A DNA stretch of 64,000 bases from positions 19,365 through 83,364 of the forward strand of contig JAFGVC010000061.1 in assembly GCA_016938195.1 (NCBI GenBank), given 5' to 3'. The notes beneath the pieces are model-generated. The model saw only the letters and a list, made by a program, of their open reading frames with translations, did no database searches and was not told where the DNA came from. The DNA comes from Tissierellales bacterium (GTDB lineage Bacteria; Bacillota; Clostridia; Tissierellales; Dethiosulfatibacteraceae). Of this stretch, positions 20,002 to 53,810 are shown piece by piece; positions within the stretch are counted from its first letter, which is position 1, and every line of letters begins with the position of its first letter. The position numbers and the translations under genes are program-made.

Positions 20002-20025
20002 ATGATGATATTAAAGGAGATATTG

Positions 20026-21427: not shown

Positions 21428-21449
21428 GGCCTGTCTAAAGAGGCCTTTT
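21427..21449 (+). terminator. hairpin between rpmH and rnpA (partial terminator/attenuator)
   Basis: AGGCCT-GTCTAAAG-AGGCCT followed by TTTGTT, immediately after the rpmH stop. Confidence 0.5.
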
Positions 21450-21470
21450 GTTCCATTTATACAAGGGTGC

Positions 21471-21824: not shown

Positions 21825-22030
21825 AAAGAATAATGATTGGTATGATTAAAGTTTATCAAGCATATTCTAAAAGAAATGGTCGGAGCAATTGTAGGTTTTA
21901 TCCTACTTGCTCGCAATATTCATTGGAAGCTTTTGAAAAATACGGTTTTTTTAAAGGCATGTATCTGAGCTTTAAGAGAATAATAAGATGTCACCCCTTC
22001 AATCCTGGAGGGTATGACCCTTTAATATAA
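21803..22030 (+). CDS. yidD: membrane protein insertion efficiency factor YidD
   Basis: CRFYPTCSQYSLEAFEKYG signature. The true start may be internal (TTG 21821 or ATG 21833). Confidence 0.9.
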   Translation: MEEGIILKRIMIGMIKVYQAYSKRNGRSNCRFYPTCSQYSLEAFEKYGFFKGMYLSFKRIIRCHPFNPGGYDPLI

Positions 22031-22045
22031 TTGGAGGTATTTTTA

Positions 22046-23454: not shown

Positions 23455-23460
23455 ATGAAT

Positions 23461-23488
23461 AAACCCGGTAATTATCGGGTTTTTTTTG
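23461..23488 (+). terminator. intrinsic terminator after jag
   Basis: AAACCCG-GTAATTAT-CGGGTTT followed by a T-run. Confidence 0.75.
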
Positions 23489-23516
23489 ATTATAATATTA
23501 GAAAATAGGTGAAAAT

Positions 23517-24893
23517 ATGATTAATGATACCATAGCTGCTTCAGCTACCTCACCGGGATTATCCGGAATAGGCATCATCAGATTGAGTGGAATTGAAGCT
23601 ATAGATATAGCAGAAAAATTATTTAAAAGCAAAAGTAGAAAAAAATTGAGTGAACTGGAAGATAGAAAGCTTAATTATGGATGGATGATAGACCCCTTAA
23701 CTAATGCTATACTGGATGAAGTATTGGTTGTTTATATGCGTTCTCCTAAAACATATACCAGGGAAGACGTTGTAGAGATTAATTGTCACGGCGGTATTGT
23801 GTCAACAGAAAGAATTTTAAATCTGTTGGTATCAAATGGTGTTCGACTTGCTGAGAGAGGAGAATTTACAAAAAGAGCATTTATGAATGGCAGATTGGAC
23901 CTTACTCAGGCCGAAGCCGTTATGGATCTTGTTGGAGCGCGTACACAAAATAGCTTTGATATTTCTTTTCATCAATTGGAAGGAAGATTGTCAAAGGAAA
24001 TTAATCATATTCGGAAGAAATTGATGGATATGACGGCTCAGATTGAAGTTAATATTGATTTTCCTGAGTATGATGAGGAACAGATGACCGTTGTAAATAT
24101 TGAATCCATTTCCCGGGAAATAGTATATAAAATTGACAAATTGATTCAGTCTTCAGAAACAGGAAAAATATATAAAGAAGGAATACGAACATTAATCCTT
24201 GGAAAACCAAATGTTGGCAAATCATCCTTGATGAATTATTTATTAAATGAAAACAGATCAATTGTCACTGATATTCCGGGAACGACTAGAGATACAATTG
24301 AAGAATATATAAATCTTGCAGGTATACCTTTAAAAATAATTGATACGGCTGGAATAAGGAACACACAAGATGAGGTTGAGAAGATTGGGGTAAAAAAAGC
24401 CTTGGATAAAATTGATATGGCAGATCTCATTTTGATGGTTTTTGATGCTTCAACGGCTATTGAGTCAGAAGACAAGATGATTTTAGAAGCTATAAAAGGC
24501 AAAAATGTGATATATCTTCTTAATAAAACAGATTTACCGGAACAAATTAATTTTGAAGCTCTTGATACGATAAAAAATAATATAATAAAAATATCTATTG
24601 TAAATAATGAAGGACTTGATAAAATTGAAGAGAAAGTAAAGGCTGAATTTTTAAAAGGAAGTATTAGCGTAGAAAATGATATTATTGTTAATAATTTGAG
24701 ACATAAGGATTTGCTTCATAAAGCGAGAAAATCAATCAGCGAGGTTTTGGAGAGTATTAAAAATTCGGCTACTCTTGAATGCTTGCAAGTAGATATTATT
24801 AATACGCTTGAATATTTAGGAGAGATTACAGGTGAATCGGTCAAAGATGATTTAATTGATAAAATTTTTGCCGAATTTTGTATAGGAAAATAA
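23517..24893 (+). CDS. mnmE: tRNA modification GTPase MnmE
   Basis: G1 GKPNVGKSS, DTAGIR, NKTD, C-terminal CIGK. Confidence 0.97.
   Translation: MINDTIAASATSPGLSGIGIIRLSGIEAIDIAEKLFKSKSRKKLSELEDRKLNYGWMIDPLTNAILDEVLVVYMRSPKTYTREDVVEINCHGGIVSTERILNLLVSNGVRLAERGEFTKRAFMNGRLDLTQAEAVMDLVGARTQNSFDISFHQLEGRLSKEINHIRKKLMDMTAQIEVNIDFPEYDEEQMTVVNIESISREIVYKIDKLIQSSETGKIYKEGIRTLILGKPNVGKSSLMNYLLNENRSIVTDIPGTTRDTIEEYINLAGIPLKIIDTAGIRNTQDEVEKIGVKKALDKIDMADLILMVFDASTAIESEDKMILEAIKGKNVIYLLNKTDLPEQINFEALDTIKNNIIKISIVNNEGLDKIEEKVKAEFLKGSISVENDIIVNNLRHKDLLHKARKSISEVLESIKNSATLECLQVDIINTLEYLGEITGESVKDDLIDKIFAEFCIGK
24108..24121. promoter_or_regulatory. Noc-binding site (NBS), perfect 14-bp palindrome
   Basis: ATTTCCCGGGAAAT is identical to the B. 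subtilis NBS core. It lies inside the mnmE coding sequence. Confidence 0.65.
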
Positions 24894-24905
24894 GTGGAGG
24901 ATAAG

Positions 24906-26810
24906 TTGAAAGAGGATATTAGATTCTTAGCGGACCAGTATGATATTATTGTAATAGGCGCTGGTCATGCGGGGTGTGAAGCGGCCTTAGCCGGAGCGAG
25001 GCTAAAGAAAAGGACATTAATGCTTACTATGAGTCTCGATTCTATTGCTTTAATGGCTTGCAATCCTTCTATTGGAGGAACCGGAAAAGGTCATCTGGTT
25101 AGAGAAATTGACGCTTTAGGAGGTCAGATGGCGCTTGTGACAGACCACGCCATGATTCAATTTAAAATGCTGAATACTTCTAAAGGACCAGCGGTTCATT
25201 CACTCAGAGCTCAGGCTGATAAGCGAATGTATCATGTTAAAATGAAGCAAATTCTTGAGAACGAACCAAACCTTGATATTAAGCAAGCGGAAGTAGTGGA
25301 AATTTTGGTTAATGACGGTAGAGTAGAAGGCGTACTGACTAAGACAGGAGCGTGGTATAAATCCAAAGCAGTTATTTTATGTACAGGTACTTATTTAAAA
25401 GGAAGGGTTTATATTGGAGAAGTAAATTATGAAAGTGGTCCTGCAGGTTTATTTCCGGCCAATAGTCTTTCAAAATCATTAATCGATAATGGCATTGTCC
25501 TAAAAAGATTTAAAACAGGTACACCTGCACGTGTTCATAGGGATTCAATTGATTTTTCTAAAATGGAGATTCAAGATGGAGATCAAGAAATTATTCCCTT
25601 TTCTTTTATGACGGAAAATATTTCAATTGACCAGATTCCATGTTACTTGACTTATACGAATCAAAATACTCATGATATTATTCGATCAAACTTAGATAGA
25701 TCTCCGATATACGCGGGTCAAATTGAAAGTGTAGGGCCGAGATATTGTCCTTCAATCGAAGATAAAGTGGTTAAATTTCATGATAAGCTTCAGCATCAAA
25801 TTTTTATAGAACCGGAAGGCCTCGACACCAAAGAACTATATGTGCAGGGTTTTTCCTCTAGTCTTCCTGAGGAAATTCAGATACAAATGTACAAGACCGT
25901 TTCCGGACTTGAAAATTGTCAAACCATGAGGCCAGCCTACGCCATAGAATATGATTGCATAGACCCGACACAATTGAAGAGAAGTTTAGAAATTAAAGCA
26001 ATCAGTCATTTGTACTGTGCAGGTCAGATTAATGGTAGCTCAGGCTATGAGGAGGCCGCGGGTCAAGGATTAATAGCAGGCATTAATGCCGCATTACAGA
26101 TTGACCATAAAGATCCTTTGATTCTTGATCGATCAGAAGCTTATATTGGAGTTTTAATTGATGATCTAGTCACTAAAGGCACCAATGAACCTTATCGCAT
26201 GATGACTTCAAGGGCAGAATATCGACTTGTATTGAGGCAGGATAATGCAGATTTGAGATTAACAGAAAAAGGTTACCTTTGCGGGCTTGTTACACAAAAA
26301 AGATATCAAGCATTTCTTGAAAAGAAAAGCAGTATTGAAAATGAAACACATCGATTAAAATCAACACAGATTGCGCCAAAGCTTGAAATCAATCGTTTTT
26401 TGGAGAGAATAGGGTCGGTTGAGTTAAGAACACCGGTGTCTCTTTATGATCTGATTAAAAGGACTGAATTAACATATGACAACACGGTTGAAATTGATCC
26501 ACACAGACCACAGCTGAGCAAAGTGATTCGAATGCAGATTGAAACACAAATTAAGTATGAAGGCTATATTGATAAGCAATACATTCAAATCGAGCAATTT
26601 AAAAAACTTGAAACGAAAGTTTTGCCTTCAAATATTGATTATACGACAGTAAGAGGGTTGAGAATTGAAGCCGTGCAGAAATTATCAAAAATCAGACCTG
26701 AATCTTTAGGTCAGGCATCTAGGATTTCAGGTGTATCTCCGGCAGATATTAATGTATTGATTATTTTTTTAGAGCAACAAAAAAGAAAGAGGCAAAGGGA
26801 TGAAGACTGA
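24906..26810 (+). CDS. mnmG: tRNA uridine 5-carboxymethylaminomethyl modification enzyme MnmG
   Basis: [19 protein letters not shown] fold over a long conserved body. TTG 24906 lies 5 nt after GGAGG. The ORF-track GTG 24894 abuts the mnmE stop. Confidence 0.96.
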
Positions 26811-27510
26811 GTTAAAAGAGATACTTAATGGTGCCGGAATACAATGTTCAGAGGAAAGATTAGACCTTTTTTTAGAATATGAAACATTAATTAAGGACTG
26901 GAATCAAAAAATAAATATTACGTCGATTACAGAAAGTCATGAGATTTATGTCAAACATTTCTTAGATAGTATAATTATTAAAAATATGTTTGAATTTAAT
27001 CATAAAAAAATAATAGACGTTGGTACAGGTGGCGGATTTCCTGGAATTCCTTTAAAAATTTTTCATGATCAGATGAAGCTTACTCTATTGGATAGTTTAA
27101 ATAAACGGATTATGTTCTTAGAAGAAGTGACAGCCAAGCTTCATCTAGAGAATGTACAGCTTTTACATGGCAGAGCAGAGGATTATGGAATGAATCGTGA
27201 TTTTAGAGAGAGATATGATGTTTCCATATCCAGGGCAGTGGCTTCATTAAACGTCTTAGCGGAGTACTGTTTGCCATTTGTTAGGGTAGGAGGATTCTTT
27301 TTATCGATGAAGGGATATGACTCTGATGACGAGATAAATGTATCTAAGCATGCAATTAAAATATTAGGAGGTAGAATTGTTGAAGTCAAAAAATATAATT
27401 TACCCGGCACGGATATGATGAGAAGCTTGATTATTGTTGAAAAAATAGCTGAAACAGGATTAAAATATCCAAGAATGGCAGGGAAACCTGCAAAAAAACC
27501 AATTATTTAA
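26800..27510 (+). CDS. rsmG: 16S rRNA (guanine527-N7)-methyltransferase RsmG
   Basis: SAM motif [15 protein letters not shown]. Follows mnmG. Confidence 0.95.
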
Positions 27511-27526
27511 GGACGAGAGGAAGAAC

Positions 27527-28315
27527 ATGGCAAATTTAAGATATATAGAGACAGTCAATTTAGATAATATTATTCCTAATCAAAATCAACCAAGAAGAAA
27601 TTTTGAAAAAGAGGCTTTAGCACAATTGGCAGAGTCTATCAAGACATATGGCGTGATTCAACCCATATCTCTGAAGAAACATAATGATAATCAATATGAA
27701 ATTATCGCAGGAGAAAGAAGATATAGAGCAGCAAAAATAGCTGGATTGGATAGTATTCCTTCTATTATAATCGAAGTGGAAGAAAGTGATTCTGCAGCGA
27801 TCGCTTTAATAGAAAATCTTCAGCGTGAGGATTTAGATTTTATTGAAGAAGCCAATTCTTATCTTAAGCTTATGAATTTATTCAATATTACTCAAAGAGA
27901 GTTAGCGGCAAAAATAGGGAAAAAACAGTCTACTATTGCAAATAAAATAAGAATTCTGAAATTATCGAATCCTATAAAGGAAGATATTATAAAGCACAAA
28001 TTATCTGAACGACATGCGCGATCACTGCTTAAAATTGAAGATGACAATATTCAAATGAAAGTATTAAAAAAAACAATTAAAAATAATTTAACTGTAAAAG
28101 AGACTGAAAAATTAATTGATGATATAATTAAAAAGTCTGAAGAGAATCAATTAGAGAATGAGAGTAGAGTTAAGAATTTTATCAATTACAAAATTTATGT
28201 TAATACGATTAAGCACGCTTATCGAGAAATTTTAAAAACGGGCGTGTCTGCAAAATTCGAGCAAAATGATTATGATGATTATATAGAAATTAAGGTTAGA
28301 ATACCTAAAAAATAA
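27527..28315 (+). CDS. noc: ParB-family nucleoid occlusion protein Noc-like
   Basis: ParB N-domain IAGERRYRAAKIAG plus an HTH. It is the first of two ParB paralogues and sits in the rsmG-noc-soj-spo0J order seen in Bacillus. A perfect NBS lies nearby. Confidence 0.8.
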   Translation: MANLRYIETVNLDNIIPNQNQPRRNFEKEALAQLAESIKTYGVIQPISLKKHNDNQYEIIAGERRYRAAKIAGLDSIPSIIIEVEESDSAAIALIENLQREDLDFIEEANSYLKLMNLFNITQRELAAKIGKKQSTIANKIRILKLSNPIKEDIIKHKLSERHARSLLKIEDDNIQMKVLKKTIKNNLTVKETEKLIDDIIKKSEENQLENESRVKNFINYKIYVNTIKHAYREILKTGVSAKFEQNDYDDYIEIKVRIPKK

Positions 28316-28336
28316 AATCAGGATAAGAGGTAAATC

Positions 28337-29107
28337 ATGGGAAAAATTATAGCTATATTCAATCAAAAGGGCGGCGTTGGCAAAACGACGACCAATGTCA
28401 ATCTATCTTCACTTTTAGCGTCTGAAGGATATCAGATACTTTCAATTGATATTGATCCCCAAGGTAACTCTACAAGCGGCTTTGGCATTAACAAAATTGA
28501 GCTTAAGAGCACAATCTATGATTGCTTATTTAACGAGATACCGATTGAAGAAGCTATTATTTCAACCTCTATTTCAAATTTAAAAATTTTACCGGCTAAT
28601 ATTGACCTTGCAGGAGCTGAAATAGAGCTTACGAAATCAGCGTACAGGGAAAATACGCTGAAGGAGTCTTTAAAGAGCATCAAAGAAAAATATGACTATA
28701 TTTTTATTGATTGTCCGCCTTCCTTAGGACTTCTATCAATAAATGCTTTGACAGCTGCAAATAGTGTAATTATACCGATTCAATGTGAGTATTATGCCCT
28801 TGAAGGGGTTAGTCAGCTTGTAAATACGATTAAGCTAGTCAAGAGAAATCTAAATCCTAGTTTAGAAATAGAAGGAATAATACTCAATATGTATGATGGT
28901 AGAACCAATTTGTCCGTACAAGTCGTTGAAGAGGTCAAAAAATATTTCAAAAACAAAGTGTATAAATCTATTATACCCAGAAATGTCAGATTGGCGGAAG
29001 CGCCTAGCTTTGGCATGTCAATTATGGCTTATGATGAAAAGTCAAAGGGAGCAGAAGCTTATTTAAGCTTAGCTAGTGAATTTTTGAAAAGAAATAAGGG
29101 GGTATAA
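28337..29107 (+). CDS. soj: ParA/Soj chromosome partitioning ATPase
   Basis: Deviant Walker A NQKGGVGKTTT, DCPPSLG. Confidence 0.95.
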   Translation: MGKIIAIFNQKGGVGKTTTNVNLSSLLASEGYQILSIDIDPQGNSTSGFGINKIELKSTIYDCLFNEIPIEEAIISTSISNLKILPANIDLAGAEIELTKSAYRENTLKESLKSIKEKYDYIFIDCPPSLGLLSINALTAANSVIIPIQCEYYALEGVSQLVNTIKLVKRNLNPSLEIEGIILNMYDGRTNLSVQVVEEVKKYFKNKVYKSIIPRNVRLAEAPSFGMSIMAYDEKSKGAEAYLSLASEFLKRNKGV

Positions 29108-29112
29108 ATTTA

Positions 29113-29976
29113 ATGGTAAGTAAAAGAAAAGCTTTAGGTAAAGGCTTGTCAGCGCTAATTACTGAAGAGTTTGAAAAAATTGATGAGAATGCGATAATTA
29201 ACATTAATCTTGATGACATTAAATCAAATCCTAATCAGCCAAGGAGAAGGTTTGACGATGAAAAAACGATTGAATTATCAAAATCTATCGAAAGACATGG
29301 TGTTATTCAACCCATTATTGTAAAGAAATCGGGTGATTATTATCAAATTATTGCCGGGGAGAGAAGATGGCGTGCCGCAAGAATGGCTGGATTGTCAGAT
29401 ATACCTTCTATAGTTCGCGATATCAGCAACAGAAGTCAAGAGGAGCTAGCTTTAATTGAAAACATTCAACGTGAGGATCTTAATTCAATAGATGAAGCTT
29501 TAGCCTATAGGGTCATCATGGAACGTTACGACATTACGCAAGAGGAATTATCAGATATTGTCGGGAAAAGCCGCGTTTATGTCACTAACATCATGAGGTT
29601 ATTGAAACTACCCAATTATATTCAAGATTATATAGCTGACGGTCAGTTGACGACTGGACATGGGAAAGCATTGATAGGGCTAGGAGAGGACGAGTTAGAA
29701 CGATTATCAGATAAAATTATTAAACTCGGGCTAAATGTTAGGGAGACTGAAAAAATTGTTGCGAAAATAAAGAAAGGCAGTCCTAACATTCCAAAGACTA
29801 AGAAACAGAAGAATAAAGAACCTAATATCATACATATTGAAGAAACTTTAACAGAAGAGCTTGGAACTAAAGTAGATATTTTGAAAAGCAAAAAATCAGG
29901 AAAAATAATGCTTTATTTTTCAAACGACGAAGAACTATCTAGAATTTTGGCCATTATTTCAAAAAAATTATTTTAA
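29113..29976 (+). CDS. spo0J: ParB/Spo0J chromosome partitioning protein
   Basis: IAGERRWRAARMAG arginine patch and an HTH (QEELSDIVGKSRVYVTNIMRLL). Confidence 0.93.
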   Translation: MVSKRKALGKGLSALITEEFEKIDENAIININLDDIKSNPNQPRRRFDDEKTIELSKSIERHGVIQPIIVKKSGDYYQIIAGERRWRAARMAGLSDIPSIVRDISNRSQEELALIENIQREDLNSIDEALAYRVIMERYDITQEELSDIVGKSRVYVTNIMRLLKLPNYIQDYIADGQLTTGHGKALIGLGEDELERLSDKIIKLGLNVRETEKIVAKIKKGSPNIPKTKKQKNKEPNIIHIEETLTEELGTKVDILKSKKSGKIMLYFSNDEELSRILAIISKKLF

Positions 29977-30030
29977 CAAAAACTTAACAATTATTTCACA
30001 AATGATTGACTATATATTAACACTTTACAT

Positions 30031-30274: not shown

Positions 30275-30760
30275 GTGCAAAAGGCAATAGATATTAAAGA
30301 AAATACTGATAAATTTGAAGAGCTTTTAAGATATATTGAGAGCCAAGACAAATCACAAGGCATACTGATGCAAACTTTACACAAAGCGCAAGAAATCTTT
30401 GGATATTTACCAATTGAGGTTCAGAAATTTATATCTGAGAAAACGAAAATTCCAATGGCAGAAATATACGGCGTAGCTACTTTTTACACGCAATTTTCTC
30501 TAGAGCCTAAAGGACAGTATACCGTAGGTGTATGTATGGGAACCGCCTGTTATGTTAAAAGTGCTCAGTTGGTTCTTGATAGATTACAACAGGAATTAAA
30601 AATTAAAGTTGGAGAAACAACAGAAGATAATGTTTTTAGCATTCAAGCGACACGATGTCTAGGTTGTTGTGGGCTTGCACCGGTCATGATGATTGGTGAG
30701 GATGTCTATGGTAAGGTTGACCCAAAAGATATCCCCAATATTTTAAAAAATTATAGATAG
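30275..30760 (+). CDS. hndA: [FeFe]-hydrogenase NuoE-like [2Fe-2S] subunit (HndA/HydC)
   Basis: GTG start after AAGGAGG. NuoE cysteines GVCMGTAC ... RCLGCCGLAP. Confidence 0.9.
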   Translation: MQKAIDIKENTDKFEELLRYIESQDKSQGILMQTLHKAQEIFGYLPIEVQKFISEKTKIPMAEIYGVATFYTQFSLEPKGQYTVGVCMGTACYVKSAQLVLDRLQQELKIKVGETTEDNVFSIQATRCLGCCGLAPVMMIGEDVYGKVDPKDIPNILKNYR

Positions 30761-30776
30761 TTTTCCGGAGGTTTAG

Positions 30777-31142
30777 ATGAAAACGTTAGATGAATTAAAA
30801 AAAATTAGAGAAGACGCAAAAAAGAATCTTGAACTTCGAAATACAGATAAAACAATCAGAGTGGTAGTTGGTATGGCAACCTGTGGTATTTCTGCAGGGG
30901 CAAGACCGGTACTTCAGACTTTTGTGGAAGAAGTCAGCAAGAGAAAGCTTCATAACGTACAAGTTGTTCAAACGGGATGTATCGGCATGTGTACCTATGA
31001 ACCAATTGTTGAAATAACGATGCCCAATGAAGAAAAGGTTACTTATGTTTTTATGGATACAGATAAAGTTAAAAAAGTAGTTTCAGACCACTTGGTTAAT
31101 GGACGTGTTGTCGTAGATTATACAATTGGCGCTTTGAAATAA
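30777..31142 (+). CDS. hndB: thioredoxin-like ferredoxin-fold small subunit (HndB-like)
   Basis: 121 aa and paralogous to the N-terminal domain of the next subunit. Only 3 Cys are present (ATCGISAG, TGCIGMC). Confidence 0.8.
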   Translation: MKTLDELKKIREDAKKNLELRNTDKTIRVVVGMATCGISAGARPVLQTFVEEVSKRKLHNVQVVQTGCIGMCTYEPIVEITMPNEEKVTYVFMDTDKVKKVVSDHLVNGRVVVDYTIGALK

Positions 31143-31173
31143 TAAGCTAATATAGGAATAGTGGAGGGTTAAG

Positions 31174-32964
31174 ATGGCTTTATATAGATCACATGTGCTG
31201 GTTTGTGGAGGAACAGGTTGTAATTCTTCAAAATCAGATATGATCAGACAAAGATTTGAAGAGAAAATTATTGAAATGGGACTGGATAAAGAGGTTCAGG
31301 TTATTAGCACAGGCTGTTTTGGCTTATGTGAGGAAGGACCGATAGTGGTCATCTATCCTGAGGGTGCTTTTTATTCAAGGATGAAAATTGACCGCGTAGA
31401 CAGGATTGTTGAAGAGCATTTATTTAAAGGAAGAATTGTTAAAGAATATCTTTATGAAGAGAGCTTAGACAAAGATAAGCTCAAATCTCTTAATGAAGTT
31501 GATTTTTATAGCAAACAAAAAAGAGTAGCTCTCAGAAATTGTGGTGTCATTAACCCTGAGGATATCAGCGAATATATTGCAAGAGATGGATATTTAGCGT
31601 TAGGAAAAGTATTGACGGAAATGACACCTGTAGATGTTATTCAGGTGATGAAGGATTCAGGCTTAAGAGGAAGAGGTGGCGGAGGATTTCATACCGGATT
31701 AAAATGGGGTTTTGCCGCACCAAATCAAGCGGATCAAAAATATGTCATCTGCAATGCTGATGAAGGAGATCCCGGAGCTTTTATGGATAGAAGCGTACTG
31801 GAAGGAGACCCTCATGCCGTATTGGAAGCGATGGCTATTGCGGGTTATGCCATTGGAGCGACAAAAGGTTTTATATATGTTCGTGCAGAATACCCGATAG
31901 CAGTCAAGAGACTTGAAATAGCAATAGGTCAGGCTAAAGAAATGGGATTGCTTGGCAAAAATATATTTGATTCGGGTTTTGATTTTGAAATTGAGATAAG
32001 ATTAGGCGCAGGAGCTTTTGTGTGTGGCGAAGAAACGGCTTTAATCGCTTCCATAGAGGGTCAAAGAGGAATGCCGAGGAATAAGCCACCGTTTCCTGCT
32101 ATTAAAGGATTATTTGGAAAACCGACTATTATAAACAATGTAGAAACATTAGCCAATGTTCCACAAATTATTATTAATGGGGCTGACTGGTTTAGATCCT
32201 TTGGAAGTGAAAAATCTCCCGGAACGAAAGTTTTCGCTTTGGGTGGCAAAATAAACAATACTGGACTTGTTGAAATTCCAATGGGTACAACTCTTAGAGA
32301 AGTTATTTATGATATTGGTGGCGGGTGTCCTAACGGAAAAGCATTTAAGGCGGTACAAACCGGAGGTCCCTCCGGTGGATGTATCACGGCTGATTATATT
32401 GATACAAAAATTGACTTCGATACACTGACTGATCTAGGCTCTATGATGGGCTCAGGCGGAATGATTGTTATGGATGAAGACAACTGCATGGTAGATATTG
32501 CTAGATTTTTCCTTGAATTCACCGTTGAGGAATCCTGTGGAAAGTGTACACCTTGTAGAGAAGGAACGAAGAGAATGTTGGAAATTCTTGATCTTATAAC
32601 ACAAGGGAAGGCTACCTTAGAGGATTTAGACAAACTTGAAAAGCTTGCGATTAACATTAAAAACACAGCATTATGCGGACTTGGACAAACGGCGCCTAAC
32701 CCCGTTTTATCAACTATGAGATATTTCAGGGAAGAGTATGAAGCACATGTATTAGAAAAGAGATGTCCCGCGGGCGTGTGTAAATCACTTCTGAGCTATT
32801 ATATTACAGAAGACTGCAGAGGATGTACGAAATGTGCAAAGCAGTGTCCTGTCAATTGTATTGAAGGTTCAGTGAAAAAATTGCATATAATCGATCAGGA
32901 TAAATGTATTAAATGTGGTGCTTGCATGGAAGCTTGTCCATTTGATTCGATTATCATTAAGTAG
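31174..32964 (+). CDS. hndC: NuoF-like NAD(P)H/FMN/Fe-S subunit (HndC/HydB)
   Basis: N-terminal Trx-like 2Fe-2S (VCGGTGC...GCFGLC), GRGGGGFHTGLKW, NADEGDPGAFMDR and ESCGKCTPCREG, plus two C-terminal 4Fe-4S motifs. Confidence 0.95.
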   Translation: MALYRSHVLVCGGTGCNSSKSDMIRQRFEEKIIEMGLDKEVQVISTGCFGLCEEGPIVVIYPEGAFYSRMKIDRVDRIVEEHLFKGRIVKEYLYEESLDKDKLKSLNEVDFYSKQKRVALRNCGVINPEDISEYIARDGYLALGKVLTEMTPVDVIQVMKDSGLRGRGGGGFHTGLKWGFAAPNQADQKYVICNADEGDPGAFMDRSVLEGDPHAVLEAMAIAGYAIGATKGFIYVRAEYPIAVKRLEIAIGQAKEMGLLGKNIFDSGFDFEIEIRLGAGAFVCGEETALIASIEGQRGMPRNKPPFPAIKGLFGKPTIINNVETLANVPQIIINGADWFRSFGSEKSPGTKVFALGGKINNTGLVEIPMGTTLREVIYDIGGGCPNGKAFKAVQTGGPSGGCITADYIDTKIDFDTLTDLGSMMGSGGMIVMDEDNCMVDIARFFLEFTVEESCGKCTPCREGTKRMLEILDLITQGKATLEDLDKLEKLAINIKNTALCGLGQTAPNPVLSTMRYFREEYEAHVLEKRCPAGVCKSLLSYYITEDCRGCTKCAKQCPVNCIEGSVKKLHIIDQDKCIKCGACMEACPFDSIIIK

Positions 32965-32980
32965 GAAGGTAGGTATACGA

Positions 32981-34786
32981 GTGGAAAAAGTTAATGTTAC
33001 TATAAATGGCAAAAAGATTTCTGTTCCTAGTGATTACACGGTGCTCTTTGCTGCAAGAGAAGCAGGCATTGATATTCCAACACTATGCTATTTAAAGGAT
33101 ATCAATGAAATAGCAGCCTGTAGACTTTGCGTCGTTGAAGTGGATATCAAAGGAAGACCTATGAGAAATCTTCCGGCATCATGTGTGTTGAAGGTTGAAG
33201 AAGGCATGAATATACGCACGAACACATCACGTGTTAGAGAGGCCGTTAGAACAAATCTCGAATTGATTTTAGCCAATCATAATAGAGAATGTTTGACATG
33301 CTTTAGGAATGGAACTTGTGAGCTTCAAAAGCTTTGTGATGAAATGGGTGTTGATGATATTGCTTATGAAGGAGAGAAACGAAGACCCATACTTGATCAA
33401 GTTTCTATGTCCATTGTAAGAGATTCAAGTAAATGTATTTTATGTGGTCGATGTGTCAATATGTGTAAGCAAGTTCAAGGCATAGGAATACTTGATTTTA
33501 CAAGACGTGGATTTGAAACCGAAATAGCACCGGCATTTGATTTCTCAATGGCCGATTCACCATGTGTTTATTGTGGTCAATGTATACAGGCTTGTCCGGT
33601 AGCTGCTTTAAGAGAAAGAACTAATATAGATGATGTATGGGATGCCCTTGAAGATCCTGAAAAATTTGTTGTTGTTCAAACAGCTCCCGCAGTTAGAGCT
33701 TCATTAGGAGAAGAGTTTGGCATGCCCGTAGGAACAAGAGTTACGGGTAAGATGGTAGCTGCGCTTAGAAGATTAGGATTTGATAAGGTTTTTGATACAG
33801 ACTTTACAGCGGATTTGACTATATTAGAAGAAGGTACAGAGCTTTTAGGAAGAATTAAAAATGGTGGAAAGCTACCCATGATTACATCTTGTTCACCGGG
33901 GTGGATTCGTTATTGCGAGACATTTTATCCTGAATTTGTTGAAAATTTATCATCTTGCAAGTCTCCTCAGCAAATGTTTGGAGCTATTGCAAAGTCTTAT
34001 TATGCTAAAAAAATAGGTATAGATCCTAAAAATATGGTTGTAGTGTCAATCATGCCATGTATTGCTAAAAAGACTGAAGCTAATAGACTGGAGATGCAAG
34101 TTGATGGTATTAGAGATGTAGATTTTTCATTAACTACTAGAGAATTGGGTAATATGATTAAGCAAGGTCGAGTAGATTTTAAAAAATTATCAGATGAAAA
34201 TTTTGATTTGATATTGGGCGAGTATTCTGGCGCTGGCGTTATATTTGGAGCAACGGGTGGTGTAATGGAAGCCGCTTTAAGAACTGTTGCCGATGTTTTG
34301 ACAGGTCAGGACCTTGAAAATATTGAATATCATGTCGTCAGAGGATTGGACGGTGTCAAGGAAGCTAGTGTTGTTTTACCAGTGGATGGTGTTGATACTG
34401 AAATTAAAGTTGCTGTCGCTCATGGTACAAAAAATGCAGCGAAGGTATTAGATGCGGTTAAGGCGGGAGAGAAGAGCTATCACTTTATTGAAATCATGGC
34501 ATGCCCAGGAGGATGTGTTCATGGTGGTGGTCAATCGCATGTTTCTGCAAAGGAACGATTGGATGTTAATCCTAAGGTCAGCCGAGCTAATGCATTGTAT
34601 GCTGAGGATGCGATTATGGTTAATCGTAAGTCACATAAAAACCCTGAAATTTCAAAACTATATGCAGAATTTCTTGTGGAGCCTAACGGTCATCTTTCAC
34701 ACAAACTTCTGCACACTCATTATAAAGTCAAGAAACAATATCAAATAGAAAATCAAGATGATTTTGAAGAATTGATTAGAAAGTAA
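32981..34786 (+). CDS. hndD: [FeFe]-hydrogenase catalytic subunit (HndD/HydA) with variant L1 motif
   Basis: The GTG start follows GGAAGGTAGG. The N-terminal part carries 2Fe-2S, His-ligated and two 4Fe-4S motifs. The H-domain aligns colinearly with CpI: L2 is MPCIAKKTE and L3 is EIMACPGGCVHGGG. L1 reads TSCSPGW. Confidence 0.95.
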   Translation: MEKVNVTINGKKISVPSDYTVLFAAREAGIDIPTLCYLKDINEIAACRLCVVEVDIKGRPMRNLPASCVLKVEEGMNIRTNTSRVREAVRTNLELILANHNRECLTCFRNGTCELQKLCDEMGVDDIAYEGEKRRPILDQVSMSIVRDSSKCILCGRCVNMCKQVQGIGILDFTRRGFETEIAPAFDFSMADSPCVYCGQCIQACPVAALRERTNIDDVWDALEDPEKFVVVQTAPAVRASLGEEFGMPVGTRVTGKMVAALRRLGFDKVFDTDFTADLTILEEGTELLGRIKNGGKLPMITSCSPGWIRYCETFYPEFVENLSSCKSPQQMFGAIAKSYYAKKIGIDPKNMVVVSIMPCIAKKTEANRLEMQVDGIRDVDFSLTTRELGNMIKQGRVDFKKLSDENFDLILGEYSGAGVIFGATGGVMEAALRTVADVLTGQDLENIEYHVVRGLDGVKEASVVLPVDGVDTEIKVAVAHGTKNAAKVLDAVKAGEKSYHFIEIMACPGGCVHGGGQSHVSAKERLDVNPKVSRANALYAEDAIMVNRKSHKNPEISKLYAEFLVEPNGHLSHKLLHTHYKVKKQYQIENQDDFEELIRK

Positions 34787-46673: not shown

Positions 46674-47771
46674 TCATTCAAATTTATCATAAAGGATATT
46701 TTCGTCTATAAATCCTTTGTCTTTGAGCAAGGGGATTAAATCATCAATCATCGGAGGGTTGCCGCAGAGGTAAGCCTCCTTGTTGTTTGCATCTAAAATA
46801 TATTTGGAGACTAAATCGGTTACCCTACCTATTTCCCCGTTCCAATTGCATTCAGGTGTAGGTCTGGATAGAACCAGTACAAGCTTAAATTCATACATGG
46901 TTTTTTCGAGTGAGTGAAGCTCATCAATCAAAAATAGGTCTTTCCTTGTACGGGCACCAAAAAAGAAGGTAACTTTTCTCTCAATATTGTTTTCATTCAT
47001 ATATCTTAAAATGCTCATAATAGGCGCAATGCCCGTTCCGATTGCAAACATCAACATATCCTTGTCACCTTCCCGATAATAAAAATCGCCAAAGGGACCA
47101 ACAATAGAAAGCTTATCTCCAACCTTGAGGTATTTGTGAATGTAGGTTGTGCAAATGCCATCCGGGACATAGCCTATAAAAAGTTCGATAGCATGCTTTG
47201 AGCTTGGGGGTGTTGCAATGGAATAAGCACGATAGACTTCCTCGTTTCCCTCATAGGGAGGAGTCAGAATTTGCACGTACTGTCCGGGCTTGTAGTCTAA
47301 TGATTCATTCTCCGGAAGTTTAAAGTTAATTTTTTTAATCTTTGACGTGAGGTCCTCAATACCGGTTACTAGATAAGTGAGCTGTTTGACATTAAAAAGC
47401 TCTTCAGGTATCTCTATTTCTATATCTTGCTTGACTTTTAATTGACAGGAGAGGCGAATTCCGTCAACTCTTTCTTTTTCTGTGACATATCCTTTTTCTG
47501 TGGAAAGAAAAGGACCTCCTCCTGATATGACTTTTACTTTGCAGTAGCCGCAGCTCCCTTTTCCTCCACAAGCGGAAGGGATAAAGATATTTTGTTCATT
47601 CAAGGTTGAAAGCAGAGAATCTCCTCCTTCAACAAGATATTCCTTGCTTTGATTAATAATCAGTTTTTTTGTACCATAATTAGCAATTGTTTTATTTGCA
47701 ATTGATAGCAGAAGGGATAATAATCCGGTAATTGTAGATAGGGTCAGTACCGTTTTCAGTATATTTTCCAT
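46674..47771 (-). CDS. nqrF: NqrF-like subunit: N-terminal TM helix, plant-type 2Fe-2S ferredoxin, FAD/NADH-binding FNR module
   Basis: ACGGKGSCGYCKV...RLSCQ (2Fe-2S), RAYSIATPP (FAD), GTGIAPIMS (NAD). Colinear with Vibrio NqrF but about 40 aa shorter. Confidence 0.85.
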   Translation of the reverse strand: MENILKTVLTLSTITGLLSLLLSIANKTIANYGTKKLIINQSKEYLVEGGDSLLSTLNEQNIFIPSACGGKGSCGYCKVKVISGGGPFLSTEKGYVTEKERVDGIRLSCQLKVKQDIEIEIPEELFNVKQLTYLVTGIEDLTSKIKKINFKLPENESLDYKPGQYVQILTPPYEGNEEVYRAYSIATPPSSKHAIELFIGYVPDGICTTYIHKYLKVGDKLSIVGPFGDFYYREGDKDMLMFAIGTGIAPIMSILRYMNENNIERKVTFFFGARTRKDLFLIDELHSLEKTMYEFKLVLVLSRPTPECNWNGEIGRVTDLVSKYILDANNKEAYLCGNPPMIDDLIPLLKDKGFIDENILYDKFE

Positions 47772-47780
47772 GTTATTCTC

Positions 47781-48368
47781 CTATTGTATTTGGACAATGC
47801 CTGAAAAACCAATAAAGGCAAGCGCCATCAGACCGGTTATAATCAAGGTGATTCCGGGACCCTCAAGACCTTTTGGGACGGGATTGTTTTTTATCTTTTG
47901 CCTAATCCCTGCCATTGCAACAATTGAAAGCATCCATCCGAGCCCGGATCCCAGACCAAAAGCGATAGATTGAAGAAAATTGTAATCGCGAATCACCATA
48001 AATAATGAAACACCAAGGATCGCACAGTTGACAGTGATTAAAGGAAGAAAAATACCAAGGGCATAATATAATCCTTCAAAATATCGATCAATAATCATTT
48101 CTACAAGCTGCACAAAAGCGGCTATGACAACAATGAATACAATATATCTCAAGTAAGCTAATCCCAGGGGAGCTAAGATATAATGATAAATTATATAGTT
48201 GATAAGTGTGGTGAATCCTAAGACAAATGTCACAGCTTGACCCAGACTCAAAGAAGTTTTAATATCACTGCTGATGGCAATAAATGAACACATGCCCAAA
48301 AAATTGGATAGTATCATATTATTCGTAAAAATTGATGCAAAGAATATAACGACAGGATTAATTTCCAT
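47781..48368 (-). CDS. nqrE: NqrE/RnfA-family membrane subunit
   Basis: GIFLPLITVNCAILG, GSGLGWMLSIVAMAGIRQK and GITLIITGLMALAF are close to Vibrio NqrE. Confidence 0.9.
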   Translation of the reverse strand: MEINPVVIFFASIFTNNMILSNFLGMCSFIAISSDIKTSLSLGQAVTFVLGFTTLINYIIYHYILAPLGLAYLRYIVFIVVIAAFVQLVEMIIDRYFEGLYYALGIFLPLITVNCAILGVSLFMVIRDYNFLQSIAFGLGSGLGWMLSIVAMAGIRQKIKNNPVPKGLEGPGITLIITGLMALAFIGFSGIVQIQ

Positions 48369-48988
48369 TATGATTTAGCTCCTCCTTGTTCAGAATTCTC
48401 TTTAAAGATATTTTTTGAAATCCATATAACAATGGCCAACATGAAAAAGGCTCCCGGAGGCATAATCATCAAAGTCCATGAGACCCAAGCATCTCCCAAA
48501 ACAGGATAGCCAAATAAACTCCCAAAGCCTAATAATTCTCTGACAAAAGCGATTAGCATAAGAATAATAGCATAGCCTGCACCCGATGCGAGCCCGTCGA
48601 GAAATGAATAAAGAGGAGGGTTTTTTTGAGCAAAGCTTTCACATCGTCCCATGATGATACAATTGGTAATGATGAGTCCGACATAAGGGCCAAGAGCTTC
48701 ACTAATAGACGGATAATAGGCTTTTAGAAAAATATCAACAATGATCACATACGCTGAAATAATCAATGTTTGAACCATCATTCTAATGTGTTTAGGTGTA
48801 AACTGGCGAATCAGAGAAACGGTAAGTTCAGAAAAAGCGGTTACAAACATAAGCCCAAGTCCCATAACTAATGAATTCATCATCAGATTAGTGACTGCCA
48901 GCGCGGAACAAATTCCCAGTATTTGCCTAAATATAGCATTATCTTCCCAAATCCCAAGCGTAATAATTTTTTTTACTTTTTTATTCAC
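48368..48988 (-). CDS. nqrD: NqrD/RnfE-family membrane subunit
   Basis: ILGICSALAVT, GLIITNCIIMGRCESFA, FVRELLGFGSLFG. Confidence 0.9.
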   Translation of the reverse strand: MNKKVKKIITLGIWEDNAIFRQILGICSALAVTNLMMNSLVMGLGLMFVTAFSELTVSLIRQFTPKHIRMMVQTLIISAYVIIVDIFLKAYYPSISEALGPYVGLIITNCIIMGRCESFAQKNPPLYSFLDGLASGAGYAIILMLIAFVRELLGFGSLFGYPVLGDAWVSWTLMIMPPGAFFMLAIVIWISKNIFKENSEQGGAKS

Positions 48989-49595
48989 TTTGGAGGCCTC
49001 CTTTTATATCAGATAGGATGAAAATAATTTGTTGATTAAAAAGATCGATTACTGCTTTGGAAGTGAGTGTAGCACCTGATATTGAGTCTATATTGCTCCC
49101 TATAGCAGGCTTGAACAATAAATTATCTGCACGATTTTCGAAAACAAGAATGTTATCAAACTGCTCAATAAACCATTCCTCATCGATACGACCGCCCAAT
49201 CCGGGTGTTTCAGAATGAGAAAGAAAATCAACACCAAGAATTGTTTTAAATTCAGAGTCAAAAGCGATTAGAGCTGTAATTTTCCCCCACAATCCCGATC
49301 CTTCTACGATAAAGGCGTAACCTATTAATTTTCCATCATCAACAGCTTTAAAATAAGAAATATTATCAATGGTTTTCTCATTAATTTTTTGATTATATTG
49401 TTCATTAATGTTTGTAGTATTAGATGAATCAATGATATTAAATGTTTTCAAAATTTTTGTTTGTTGTTTGAGCTTCGATTGGATTTCAATCCTATCTTTA
49501 GCTAATTCATTAACGATAGCTAGCACTGAAGTGAAAACAATTGTGATTATAATCATAAAAAGGACAGGATACAAAATCCTCTTTTGTCTAGGCAT
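48981..49595 (-). CDS. NqrC/RnfG-like FMN-binding subunit
   Basis: N-terminal TM anchor and an FMN_bind domain with the flavinylation motif DSISGATLTS (49068-49088). Confidence 0.85.
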   Translation of the reverse strand: MPRQKRILYPVLFMIIITIVFTSVLAIVNELAKDRIEIQSKLKQQTKILKTFNIIDSSNTTNINEQYNQKINEKTIDNISYFKAVDDGKLIGYAFIVEGSGLWGKITALIAFDSEFKTILGVDFLSHSETPGLGGRIDEEWFIEQFDNILVFENRADNLLFKPAIGSNIDSISGATLTSKAVIDLFNQQIIFILSDIKGGLQSE

Positions 49596-50544
49596 TTTTC
49601 ACACCCCTTTTTTTAAGGTGTTTTACGGCTTCGTCGGTGATTGGAACAAAAATGTTAGCAATGAGAATGGCAAACATAATTCCTCCCGCAAAGAGTGCGA
49701 AGGCCCTAATGATAACCGTAATTGAACCAATAAGCAATCCATAGACGATACGTCCCTCAAAGGTCTTAGGCGATGTAATGGGATCAGTTGCCATAAAGAC
49801 GGCTCCGAATAAAAGACCACCTGCCAACAGGCCCCATAAAGGATTGGGAACTTGGGGAAGTCCTAAGAGATATAATGTTCCGCTCGTGAGGAAATATCCT
49901 ATTATGACGGAAAACACGGTTTCTTTGTAAGCTACCTTTTTCGTAAGCAGATAAATTGCCGAAAGAATAATCAAAAAAGCAGAAACTTCTCCAATTGAGC
50001 CCGAGACATTTCCGAAAAACAAATCAAAATAAGAAGATAAGACGCCACTTTCTCTATATATCAGCATAGGGGTTGATTGAGCCAGCACATCAATGGGTTC
50101 AGTCGTATAGGTTAAAAAACCTCCCATAAATTGTGTAGCAGGAGCAGACCATTGCGCGGTCAAATATTTGGCAAATGAAACATATACAAAAGCTCTGGCG
50201 GCAGCGGCAGGATTGAAAACATTTTTGCCAAAACCGCCAAAGGTCTCACGAGCAAAGACGATACCGAAAATCATTCCGATAGAAGCAATCCAAAAAGGTG
50301 TTCGAGGAGGTAAGGTTAACGTATATAATAAAGCAGAGACCAATACCGCCCAGGAAAACTTTTTATTCGTATTCCTAATAAAAAGCCATTCAGAGAATAA
50401 AGCTGAAACACAAGATACAATCGTTAAAAGCAATACTCTAAGCCCAAAAGTACCCACAGAAAAGATGAGTATGGGCATTAAGGAATAAAGTACTTTTTTC
50501 ATGGCACCCTGATTCATGAATTTTGTTTTCAATATATTAATCAA
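49588..50544 (-). CDS. RnfD/NqrB-like membrane subunit
   Basis: 318 aa, which is RnfD-like in length. GGFGKNVFNPAAAARAF and FMATDPITSP motifs. The TTG start lies 7 nt after GGAGGAGG. Confidence 0.85.
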   Translation of the reverse strand: MINILKTKFMNQGAMKKVLYSLMPILIFSVGTFGLRVLLLTIVSCVSALFSEWLFIRNTNKKFSWAVLVSALLYTLTLPPRTPFWIASIGMIFGIVFARETFGGFGKNVFNPAAAARAFVYVSFAKYLTAQWSAPATQFMGGFLTYTTEPIDVLAQSTPMLIYRESGVLSSYFDLFFGNVSGSIGEVSAFLIILSAIYLLTKKVAYKETVFSVIIGYFLTSGTLYLLGLPQVPNPLWGLLAGGLLFGAVFMATDPITSPKTFEGRIVYGLLIGSITVIIRAFALFAGGIMFAILIANIFVPITDEAVKHLKKRGVKNA

Positions 50545-50651
50545 GTCATGGCCTCCTCCAAAAAGAATAAACTTCTATTTAAATTTTAACAGAGGCGGAC
50601 ACGTCAAGCAACAAATAATATATCATATAAAGACTCATTTAAATATTCATA

Positions 50652-50753
50652 AGAAAATCATTATCATAAAAGCACTTTTATAAAAAATAATTATTGAATT
50701 GACAGGAGACTGAAAACCATATAGAATATCATTGTTAATAATAATTATTATCA
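50652..50753. promoter_or_regulatory. feoAB promoter with Fur boxes in the divergent nqr-like/feoA intergenic region
   Basis: TTGACA (50699-50704), a 17 nt spacer, then TAGAAT (50722-50727). TTAATAATAATTATTATCAA (50735-50754) contains two overlapping 7-1-7 Fur motifs (TAATAAT-A-ATTATTA and TAATAAT-T-ATTATCA). A second box, AGAAAAT-C-ATTATCA, lies at 50652-50666. Confidence 0.65.
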
Positions 50754-50789
50754 ATTATTAAACACTATACTATAAAGGAGAGGATTCTA

Positions 50790-52996: not shown

Positions 52997-53198
52997 TAAT
53001 ATATTTCATTAATTATATTAGTTTAACTTTTAAAATGATTACAACTATGATATAATATATTGTAGTTTATGAAATGGAGGTGACCAAATGCCTGAAGAGT
53101 TCAAAGCTGGATGCCAAAGGCCTTCAGTACAAGCGAACAATGTTGAGGAAAAGACAAAAGAAAATGTAGCGATTGAAAGTAAAAAGGAGGGAATGAGT

Positions 53199-53810
53199 AT
53201 GGTTAAAGTGGGTAAACCTGCACCGGATTTTACAGCACCTGGTTTTTTTGAGGGAAAATTTGCAAATTTTAAACTTTCTGAGTATCTTGGACAATGGGTT
53301 GTCCTTTGTTTCTACCCAGGAGATTTTACATTCGTCTGAGCGACTGAAGTTTCAGCAGTTGCTGAAAAGAATGAAGAGTTTAAAAAATTAGGGGTACAAG
53401 TTTTATCAATGAGCGTAGATAGTGTTTTTGTACACAAAATATGGAATGAAAATGAATTATCTAAAATGACGGGTAAGGACATTCCTTTCCCAATGTTATC
53501 TGATGCAGGCGGAACCATAGGCAAGATGTATGGGATTTACGATGAAGAAGGTGGCGTAGAGACAAGGGGCCGATTTTTAATAGATCCTGATGGTGTTATT
53601 CAAGGATTTGAAGTTTTAACCCCACCAGTTGGCAGAAATGTTAGTGAAACATTAAGACAAGTTCAAGCGTTCCAGTTGGTAAGAGCTTCAAAAGGAACTG
53701 AAGCGACTCCTTCCGGATGGAAACCCGGAAAGAAAGTATTAAAGCCAGGACCGGATTTGGTTGGAAATGTCTGGAAAGAATGGAAAGTATCCGAAGCTTT
53801 TGATGAATAA
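53199..53810 (+). CDS. prxU: selenocysteine-containing peroxiredoxin (PrxU-like); UGA 53337-53339 decoded as Sec47
   Basis: The two ORF-track ORFs (53088-53339 and 53409-53810) share a frame. Read-through gives FYPGDFTFV-U-ATE, i.e. the PxxxTxxC motif with UGA at the Cys position. A SECIS-like hairpin lies 10 nt downstream. A GGAGGG SD sits 7 nt before ATG 53199. An in-frame ATG at 53088 also has an SD. Confidence 0.85.
53350..53367 (+). other. putative bacterial SECIS apical hairpin
   Basis: The perfect inverted repeat TTTCAGCA/TGCTGAAA forms a 7-bp stem with an AGUU loop. It begins at the 11th nt after the UGA. Confidence 0.65.

Follow-up and report, generated by a model that had tools for sequence, protein, structure and literature searches.

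Among the ion pumps driven by redox reactions, those based on flavins make up a unique class with two known members, Rnf and Nqr, and Nqr is also a drug target. A five-gene operon in a stretch of 64,000 nucleotides of contig JAFGVC010000061.1 from a Tissierellales bacterium (the window; positions refer to this stretch unless a locus number precedes them) encodes relatives of both pumps without the NqrA/RnfC-type subunit (A/C subunit) and without RnfB. This raises the question whether such a set of subunits can still work as a pump, from which branch it derives and where the electrons go. The best explanation as a whole, to which we assign a rough probability of 45%, is a five-subunit redox-driven ion pump of the Nqr branch that lost the A/C subunit and that would deliver its electrons to a soluble protein of higher potential. 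Taken separately, it is likely that the operon represents a functional pump module of the Nqr lineage that lacks the A subunit (A-less) and that arose by loss.

The operon extends from position 50544 to 46674 on the minus strand and consists of five intact open reading frames (ORFs) in a head-to-tail arrangement. The B subunit of the NqrB/RnfD family (49588..50544, 318 amino acids (aa), TTG start; PF03116, 2e-80) is followed by the C subunit of the NqrC/RnfG family (48981..49595, 204 aa, ATG start), which matches a domain for the binding of flavin mononucleotide (FMN; PF04205 FMN_bind, 3.7e-18). The D subunit of the NqrD/RnfE family (48368..48988, 206 aa, GTG start; NF006777) and the E subunit of the NqrE/RnfA family (47781..48368, 195 aa, ATG start; nqrE model) come next, and the last gene codes for an NqrF-like F subunit (46674..47771, 365 aa, ATG start) with the domains Fer2, FAD_binding_6 and NAD_binding_1. 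B and C as well as C and D overlap by 8 nt, D and E overlap by 1 nt, and E and F are separated by 9 nt; this tight packing is consistent with a single operon. Using Pfam and NCBIfam, all five proteins matched their own families at 1e-18 to 1e-81. The ORFs and the family matches together bore out the order B-C-D-E-F on the minus strand, which had been proposed in the original prediction.

A mixed Rnf/Nqr character had also been proposed, and the family scores agree with it: by their length and motifs B and C are close to RnfD and RnfG, the scores of D and E are higher for Nqr than for Rnf, and F is NqrF-like. B reached 214.6 bits with the rnfD model TIGR01946 (cut-off 207) and 182-208 bits with the nqrB models (cut-offs 350-414), which match only from model position ~110 on. 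The alignment with NqrB from Vibrio cholerae begins only at residue ~139, and the one with RnfD from Clostridium tetanomorphum covers the full length. B is RnfD-sized, lacks the N-terminal extension of NqrB (~90 residues) and contains PF03116 as its only domain, F being encoded by a separate gene. C, composed of an N-terminal membrane anchor and an extracytoplasmic FMN-binding domain, scored 103.3 bits with the rnfG model TIGR01947 (cut-off 102). D scored 243.5 bits with the nqrD model NF006777, above the cut-off of 235, and a comparison with sequences from the PDB gave 179.9 bits for V. cholerae NqrD and 137 bits for RnfE. For E the scores with nqrE (237.9 bits) and rnfA (215.9 bits) were each slightly under their own cut-off, and the PDB sequences gave 202.7 bits for V. 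cholerae NqrE and 191 bits for RnfA. F reached 274 bits with the nqrF model TIGR01941, which is under the equivalog cut-off of 295, and the next family, BenC, gave 178 bits. F comprises an N-terminal helix, a [2Fe-2S] ferredoxin domain and an FNR domain that binds flavin adenine dinucleotide (FAD) and NAD(P)H. The alignment with V. cholerae NqrF (PDB 8a1t_F, 2.7e-58) verified that the last gene is colinear with NqrF, the N-terminal helix included; F is ~40 aa shorter and lacks V. cholerae residues ~176-204.

Hidden Markov models for RnfC/NqrA and RnfB, searched against all six reading frames of the 64-kb window, detected no such gene, nor a further set of Rnf genes. With the A/C model the only matches were weak ones, via common domains, to the hydrogenase genes at 31162-34783. 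Likewise, no gene for RnfC/NqrA or RnfB is located beside the operon in 80 related loci of Peptostreptococcales and Tissierellales, and the predicted lack of both subunits therefore holds for the window and for the surroundings of the operon in these relatives. The original prediction had considered that a canonical rnfC together with rnfB might be encoded elsewhere in the genome. Relatives do contain such genes, as reported for C. ultunense and P. lettingae (PMC5924567), Fusibacter sp. 3D3 (PMC9751042) and T. thermarum (PMC4148951), but always inside a full rnfCDGEAB operon. Since rnfC and rnfB are located there together with their own D, G, E and A genes, the co-occurrence does not show that RnfC serves the A-less complex.

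A scan of one genome per species for F yielded at least 219 relatives, and 80 loci were retrieved for comparison. Every one of these loci that was long enough to show it had the order B-C-D-E-F. The hosts belong to the Peptostreptococcales and Tissierellales and include Dethiosulfatibacter, Fusibacter, Acidaminobacter, Alkaliphilus, Schnuerera, Sedimentibacter, Sporosalibacterium and Peptoniphilaceae. The closest named relative is Dethiosulfatibacter with 70-74% identity on F and B, and the window belongs to an uncultured relative of this genus. The survey demonstrated that the five-gene layout is kept across the 80 loci, and it ruled out that F is an unrelated chance neighbour, because F was always present as the fifth gene. 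The gene upstream of the operon is divergent in 56 of 66 loci. No conserved neighbour hinting at the acceptor was found in the 80 related genomes: each type of neighbour (chemotaxis-type, aldo-keto reductase, methyltransferase, dipeptidase and similar genes) occurs in at most 19 loci, and there is no Rnf, Nqr or ApbE gene among them. Named relatives of B belong to Bacillota, Spirochaetota and Ca. Coatesbacteria; a profile search for distant B subunits returned only the Tissierellales/Fusibacter family and no further lineages. An expanded A-less operon is present in Ca. Coatesbacteria (L163:8001-14679), with three small unannotated ORFs (114, 94 and 39 aa) between B and C and two ORFs without a Pfam match (235 and 210 aa) between the D-like gene and F.

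The conservation of functional residues was counted in about 70-80 homologues of the window family. The predicted FMN site of B is Thr158 in the motif DVLAQSTP; it is aligned with T153 of C. tetanomorphum RnfD and was invariant (72/72). The motif is of the RnfD type (D-x-x-x-x-[SA]-T-P) and is preceded by a family-specific insertion of ~15 residues. Two further conserved residues of B are N111, whose counterpart in C. tetanomorphum RnfD is N124, and the Asp in the motif FMATD; roles of the RnfD residues in the binding of riboflavin and Na+ have been described (PMC9588780). The conserved acidic residues of B are E52, D254 and D304, corresponding to E144, D346 and D397 of V. cholerae NqrB. Residues G140/G141 of V. 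cholerae NqrB are linked to quinone and inhibitor binding; at these positions the window protein contains Ala48/Leu49, and the family contains Ala or Gly followed by C, V, I or L. The flavinylation motif of C is DSISGAT with Thr176 as the predicted attachment site, and its general form D-x-x-[ST]-[GS]-A-[ST] was found in 69 of 78 homologues. The flavinylation motifs of C and B are present and the window contains no apbE gene; a Pfam analysis of the remaining large window ORFs revealed neither ApbE nor quinone-pathway genes, and 64 kb say little about the whole genome. Assigned by homology, the intramembrane Fe-S centre has four ligands, Cys27 and Cys110 of D and Cys27 and Cys115 of E. In D, both cysteines and Asp131 are invariant in the family save one ambiguous residue at two of these positions, and the residue aligned with NqrD D133 is conserved. 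In E, both cysteines and Glu90, which is aligned with V. cholerae NqrE Glu95, were invariant (80/80), and the same is true for the [2Fe-2S] ligands Cys68, 74, 77 and 109 of F (77/77). Because all tested cofactor ligands and the acidic residues of the ion path are conserved, it is likely, judged from the sequences, that the operon encodes a working redox-driven ion pump with input through F.

A comparison with the systems of known structure revealed likeness to both sides. Na+-NQR from V. cholerae (PDB 7xk3, 8a1t) and the window operon have in common the NqrF input, the Fe-S centre of D and E, two predicted covalent FMN sites and the acidic residues implicated in Na+ transport, the window operon also retains the residues that align with the riboflavin site of RnfD, and they belong to the same major clade in trees of B+D+E. 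The window operon differs by the lack of NqrA, of the NqrB extension and of G140/G141, by an F subunit shorter by ~40 residues, and by the RnfD-type FMN motif (..S/A-T-P) and the ~15-residue insertion in B. Rnf from C. tetanomorphum (7zc6) and Acetobacterium woodii (9eri) originates, like the window operon, from anaerobic Firmicutes, and the size and FMN motif of B are RnfD-like and C scores slightly better as RnfG. In contrast to Rnf, the window operon contains neither RnfC nor RnfB and uses an NqrF-type NAD(P)H dehydrogenase for input, and its B, D and E subunits are located outside the Rnf clade. B and C just pass the broad subfamily cut-offs of rnfD and rnfG, yet the B+D+E tree does not support orthology with Rnf. 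The NQR/RNF-like partial systems described by Méheust et al. 2021 (PMC8238504) are also reduced derivatives that depend on flavinylation by ApbE and have an unknown acceptor. They consist of an NqrB/RnfD domain fused to an NAD-binding domain without D/E, whereas the window encodes separate B and F subunits plus C, D and E.

An exhaustive search with B yielded 6178 homologues, and this subunit alone covers dozens of clusters at 50% identity. Three groups are suggested by a tree of the best 150 B representatives, namely RnfD, NqrB together with longer intermediates, and a diverse third group with the window family. A metagenome scan provided 80 loci, which were sorted into three types of operon. 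Type Ia reads B (300-345 aa)-C-D-E-F with unrelated upstream genes (for example glucose-6-phosphate dehydrogenase (G6PD), formate-tetrahydrofolate ligase, malQ), Type Ib contains an A/C subunit of 417-539 aa followed by B (356-419 aa)-C-D-E-F, and Type II is the canonical rnfCDGEAB. Neighbour-joining trees were calculated from concatenated B+D+E (684-687 columns, 200-300 bootstraps) and rooted on Rnf, which was represented by 15 canonical rnf loci and C. tetanomorphum Rnf; V. cholerae served as the single canonical Nqr reference. The NqrF-bearing systems (Ia, Ib and V. cholerae Nqr) formed one clade versus Rnf with 100% support. Within this clade the A-less operons (Ia) were monophyletic at 100%, with Type Ib and V. 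cholerae Nqr branching outside, and the window family was monophyletic (99%) and nested among other A-less lineages. A single-gene D/E tree rooted by the paralogue showed the same grouping with a support of 20-75%, and the concatenated trees were preferred.

These trees bear on the question of origin. An alternative named beforehand, that all subunits fall inside ordinary Rnf, did not apply, as B, D and E were placed outside the Rnf clade at 100%. The proposal that the operon matches an evolutionary intermediate on the way from Rnf to Nqr was not supported either, since the A-less clade is nested in the NqrF-bearing branch and the forms with an A/C subunit lie outside of it. Because the outgroup (RnfC) and both sister groups (NqrA and an RnfC-like protein) possess an A/C subunit, the five-gene state would most simply have arisen by secondary loss of this subunit and not as an ancestral intermediate. 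The RnfD-like appearance of B may either have been kept from the ancestor or result from shortening, and the trees favour neither. Type Ib shares the B-C-D-E-F core and NqrF with the window operon, but it alone keeps the A/C subunit, and it fits the predicted architecture of an Rnf-to-Nqr intermediate better than the window operon does. The eight cysteines for two [4Fe-4S] clusters are all present in its A/C subunit, whose score places it between the nqrA and rnfC models; the B of Type Ib is longer, with the best score against NqrB models, and the F of Type Ib is an NqrF of ~366 aa. Examples are L115:6415-11931, L125:2666-7975 and L140, and partial ones are L100, L103, L106, L111, L113 and L132. 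In the literature examined no description of the Type Ib architecture was found.

The A-less layout itself has been published since 2014. Göker et al. 2014 found nqrBCDEF operons that lack nqrA in Thermotoga thermarum and T. lettingae and stated that the other reaction partner is unknown (PMC4148951). Manzoor et al. 2018 reported the same for Clostridium ultunense and Alkaliphilus metalliredigens, in which rnfCDGEAB is also present (PMC5924567). Ca. Izimaplasma ZiA1 is a further case (PMC6256511), and Fusibacter sp. 3D3, which is locus L044 of the 80, contains a full rnf operon too (PMC9751042). The window operon has the same five genes in the same order as these operons, with an F of the NqrF type and no nqrA, and the published hosts are anaerobic fermenters that also carry Rnf; for the Thermotoga operons the likeness is drawn from published descriptions of the layout. 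A Schnuerera sp. and three Alkaliphilus species (L054, L065, L066, L080), strains other than the published ones, are among the 80 loci, and we take Schnuerera to be the present genus of C. ultunense. The window operon is an ordinary member of a known, uncharacterised A-less clade. Parts of the Rnf/Nqr review from 2025 (PMC12174285) and of the evolutionary study from 2014 (PMC4014512) make no mention of A-less complexes.

The path of the electrons and the ion pumping are inferred from homology with the solved structures of Nqr and Rnf, and the conservation of ligands and motifs is seen in the sequences. NAD(P)H would be oxidised at the FAD of F, and the electrons would pass through the [2Fe-2S] cluster of F to the Fe-S centre that is held by four cysteines between D and E. 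From there they would cross the membrane to the covalent FMN of C (Thr176), continue to the FMN of B (Thr158) and get back to the cytoplasmic side by way of the riboflavin site in B, and this transfer would be coupled to the export of Na+ (or H+). The suggestion of a distinct minimal ion-pumping oxidoreductase for reduced nicotinamide adenine dinucleotide (NADH) appears compatible with these data. The exit step is unlike that of Rnf and Nqr. There is no RnfC to reduce NAD+, and neither NqrA nor the N-terminal extension of NqrB, which helps to form the quinone site in Nqr, is present. The acceptor would be a soluble or peripheral redox protein with a potential above NADH, most plausibly belonging to an oxidative-stress network. 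In sister lineages this role would be played by rubredoxin-fed enzymes; in the window organism a probable selenocysteine peroxiredoxin would be the only such neighbour. We regard this class of acceptor, which is carried over from the sister lineages, as a tentative and rather doubtful assignment.

The carry-over is based on 35 non-clostridial A-less loci. In 18 of them a protein of ~155 aa (150-167 aa), called X, is encoded directly after F (L162:12100-12558, L168:9001-9471, L164:8001-8504, L101:11844-12296 and 14 further loci, always right after F), and all six contexts of X that were looked up read B-C-D-E-F-X. X has at least 1300 homologues, all of them unnamed, and no match in Pfam, NCBIfam or the PDB sequences. 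Its AlphaFold model is confident, with a predicted local distance difference test (pLDDT) value of 94, and has no structural neighbour (best Foldseek E-value 0.14). The conserved residues include Arg30, Arg86-Gly87, Cys91-Pro92, Lys101, His123, His128 and Arg139. X may be a sixth subunit or an adaptor for the acceptor. A remnant of NqrA/RnfC was also considered and rejected (hhalign probability 0.3%).

Genes for rubredoxin, flavodiiron protein, desulfoferrodoxin or rubrerythrin were found in the flanks of nine of the 35 loci (L168:9522-15009, L164:8968-12220, L162:6263-7850, L082, L091, L092, L101, L102 and L119), compared with 0/41 rnf loci (Fisher p = 5e-4) and 0/9 Type Ib loci, and a gene for a Fur/PerR-type regulator often accompanies them. 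Locus L168 reads BCDEF-X-rubredoxin-flavodiiron-rubrerythrin on one strand, with genes for 6-phosphogluconate dehydrogenase and 6-phosphogluconolactonase upstream. In L092 rubredoxin and rubrerythrin immediately follow X, and G6PD is located upstream. The context in the sister lineages hints at an electron sink for oxidative stress. Rubredoxin-type acceptors lie an estimated ~250-300 mV above NADH, which would be enough to drive an ion pump. Genes of the oxidative pentose-phosphate pathway are located upstream of the operon in L084, L092 and L168, and a Na+/H+ exchanger gene is located upstream in L165 and L167.

A peroxiredoxin gene is located near the operon in 7 of 83 loci of the window family, the window included. 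The window gene (53088-53810, plus strand) codes for an AhpC-TSA peroxiredoxin and is interrupted by an in-frame TGA at 53337-53339, so that it appears as two ORFs. Since this TGA is placed exactly at the position of the peroxidatic cysteine (DFTFV-TGA-ATE), the protein is probably a selenocysteine peroxiredoxin, as read from the DNA.

Several points weigh against the proposed A-less pump with a soluble acceptor. X was absent from all 83 loci of the window family, and an oxidative-stress enzyme gene was found in only 1 of 83, by a weak match; the acceptor proposal is therefore a carry-over from the sister lineages, as neither X nor the context of rubredoxin, superoxide reductase (SOR) and flavodiiron protein (FDP) is present in the window and its family. 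Peroxiredoxins are normally reduced by thiol systems and not by flavin/Fe-S chains. The trees are neighbour-joining trees with only one canonical Nqr reference, and the branching order within the NqrF-bearing clade is weak (52-72%). The literature searched contains genome papers only and no biochemical work on any A-less complex, and no link between NqrF and rubredoxin systems was found in it. Elimination of NqrA is reported, in a part of the 2014 evolutionary study, to block assembly of V. cholerae Nqr (PMC4014512), so that an A-less complex would need compensating changes, of which none were identified.

The borders of the operon bear on one of the alternatives. The stop codon of F ends at 46674 and the convergent pyrE ends at 46672, which confirms the gap of 1 nt. 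On the other side, the predicted region of 245 bp (50545..50789) between B and the divergent feoA, which begins at 50790, was found as described, and so was the Shine-Dalgarno sequence GGAGGAGG 7 nt before the TTG start of B. The identities of feoA, feoB and pyrE were supported by Pfam. This control region is common to the operon and feoA and contains, besides GGAGGAGG, two Fur-like boxes and, on each strand, hexamers that resemble promoter elements. A promoter scan revealed TTGACA-17-TAGAAT on the plus strand, oriented towards feoA and matching 11 of 12 promoter positions. The Fur-like boxes at 50652-50666 and 50739-50753 have 2 and 1 mismatches to TGATAATNATTATCA; the pattern matched five times in the window, three of them within the 245 bp, with a chance expectation of 1.8 for the whole window. 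The stronger box is located immediately downstream of the near-consensus promoter facing feoA. As a general functional partner feoAB was rejected, because the adjacency occurs only in the window organism (L081 is a contig of the same organism) and in none of the 80 related loci.

This rarity weighs on the idea that the complex exports electrons, with NADH electrons leaving at the extracytoplasmic FMN of C (or B) to Fe(III), flavins or sulfur compounds; in the window organism it might act as a ferric reductase feeding FeoAB. One-way export has been proposed for partial NQR/RNF-like flavinylated systems, some of them linked to iron uptake (PMC8238504), and several hosts are described as Fe(III) or arsenate reducers (PMC5924567, PMC9751042). 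The path F-D/E-C leads from the cytoplasm to the outside, and feoAB is oriented divergently to the operon, the region in between containing Fur-like boxes. Other hosts of A-less operons presumably reduce thiosulfate or sulfur. Apart from the missing adjacency to feoAB in the related loci, B keeps the residues aligned with the riboflavin/Na+ site of RnfD and all acidic residues, which suggests that electrons still take the way back to the cytoplasmic side, and we consider export decidedly unlikely. In another explanation the complex is an Nqr-like quinone reductase, B alone forms the (mena)quinone site and the cofactor-free NqrA has become dispensable. The window complex belongs to the NqrF-bearing clade, and parts of the 2025 review state that NqrA has no redox cofactor or assigned direct function and that Nqr presumably reduced menaquinone at the start of its evolution (PMC12174285). 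Nevertheless, the entire N-terminal extension of NqrB is missing, the G140/G141 positions are not conserved in the B family, and the partner in the published hosts is discussed as unknown and probably not a quinone (PMC4148951, PMC5924567). The 64-kb window contains no quinone biosynthesis genes, which says little about the whole genome, and a literature search on the quinone content of the host genera yielded nothing usable. We consider a quinone as the acceptor unlikely.

The complex could also use ferredoxin or flavodoxin as its partner, or borrow RnfC from an rnf operon, and would then be a second Rnf with entry of NAD(P)H, working for example in gradient-driven ferredoxin reduction or as an ion-coupled transhydrogenase. 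Every published host also has rnfCDGEAB (PMC5924567, PMC4148951, PMC9751042, PMC6256511), B has the size and the FMN motif of an RnfD-like protein, and the host has an [FeFe]-hydrogenase of the electron-bifurcating type, which needs reduced ferredoxin. This explanation is improbable, since the tree separates B, D and E from the Rnf clade with 100% support, a transfer from NADH back to NAD+ gives no driving force, no RnfC-like gene accompanies the operon in the 80+35 loci, and lineages that keep the A/C subunit have a copy of their own inside the operon. The view of the operon as a decaying, functionless remnant of Nqr or Rnf could draw on the absence of the subunit reported, in the part of the 2014 study mentioned above, as necessary for assembly of V. 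cholerae Nqr (PMC4014512), and on four of the five proteins scoring under their NCBIfam equivalog cut-offs. It is scarcely credible, because the five ORFs are intact, each tested cofactor ligand is (nearly) invariant across ~80 species and several phyla, the gene order is fixed and B spans dozens of 50%-identity clusters.

The remaining part of the window contains further redox genes. At 341-1525 (plus strand) a protein of 394 aa is encoded in which two membrane Fe-S domains (Fer4_5, NapH-like) are combined with an FMN-binding domain at the C-terminus, and its sequence makes it the second predicted ApbE-flavinylated extracytoplasmic electron-transfer protein of the region; the ORF upstream of it (1-351) has no Pfam match. 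A gene set at 30275-34786 (plus strand; NuoE-like, NuoF-like and HydA) resembles that of a HydABC-type electron-bifurcating [FeFe]-hydrogenase, and because of this set the host is taken to handle both NADH and ferredoxin. The stretch from ~11400 to 30000 is the chromosomal origin region, with a change of sign of the GC skew near 20 kb. It contains gyrA, gyrB, recF, dnaN and dnaA on the minus strand and rnpA, yidC, jag, mnmE, mnmG, rsmG and parB-parA-parB on the plus strand.

For specialists who know the genome papers the A-less layout will be no surprise, and the findings bear on the question of the electron acceptor that has been raised since 2014. The A-less version is spread over at least 219 species-level genomes, with B relatives in Bacillota, Spirochaetota and Ca. 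Coatesbacteria, to which the literature adds Thermotogota and Ca. Izimaplasma. What is added here is that the A-less clade is monophyletic and would have arisen through loss of the A/C subunit, and that the sister lineages provide X and rubredoxin-linked enzymes as candidates for the partner. A-less complexes would also illustrate a rewiring of the pump core. An unlikely but consequential extension is that A-less BCDEF complexes form a third functional class, NAD(P)H dehydrogenase pumps that feed soluble high-potential proteins of O2 and peroxide defence instead of quinone or NAD+. In the sister lineages the recipient would be rubredoxin, which passes electrons on to flavodiiron protein, SOR and rubrerythrin, perhaps with X for docking. 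If this is true, the removal of O2 and reactive oxygen species would give strict anaerobes a means of energy conservation.

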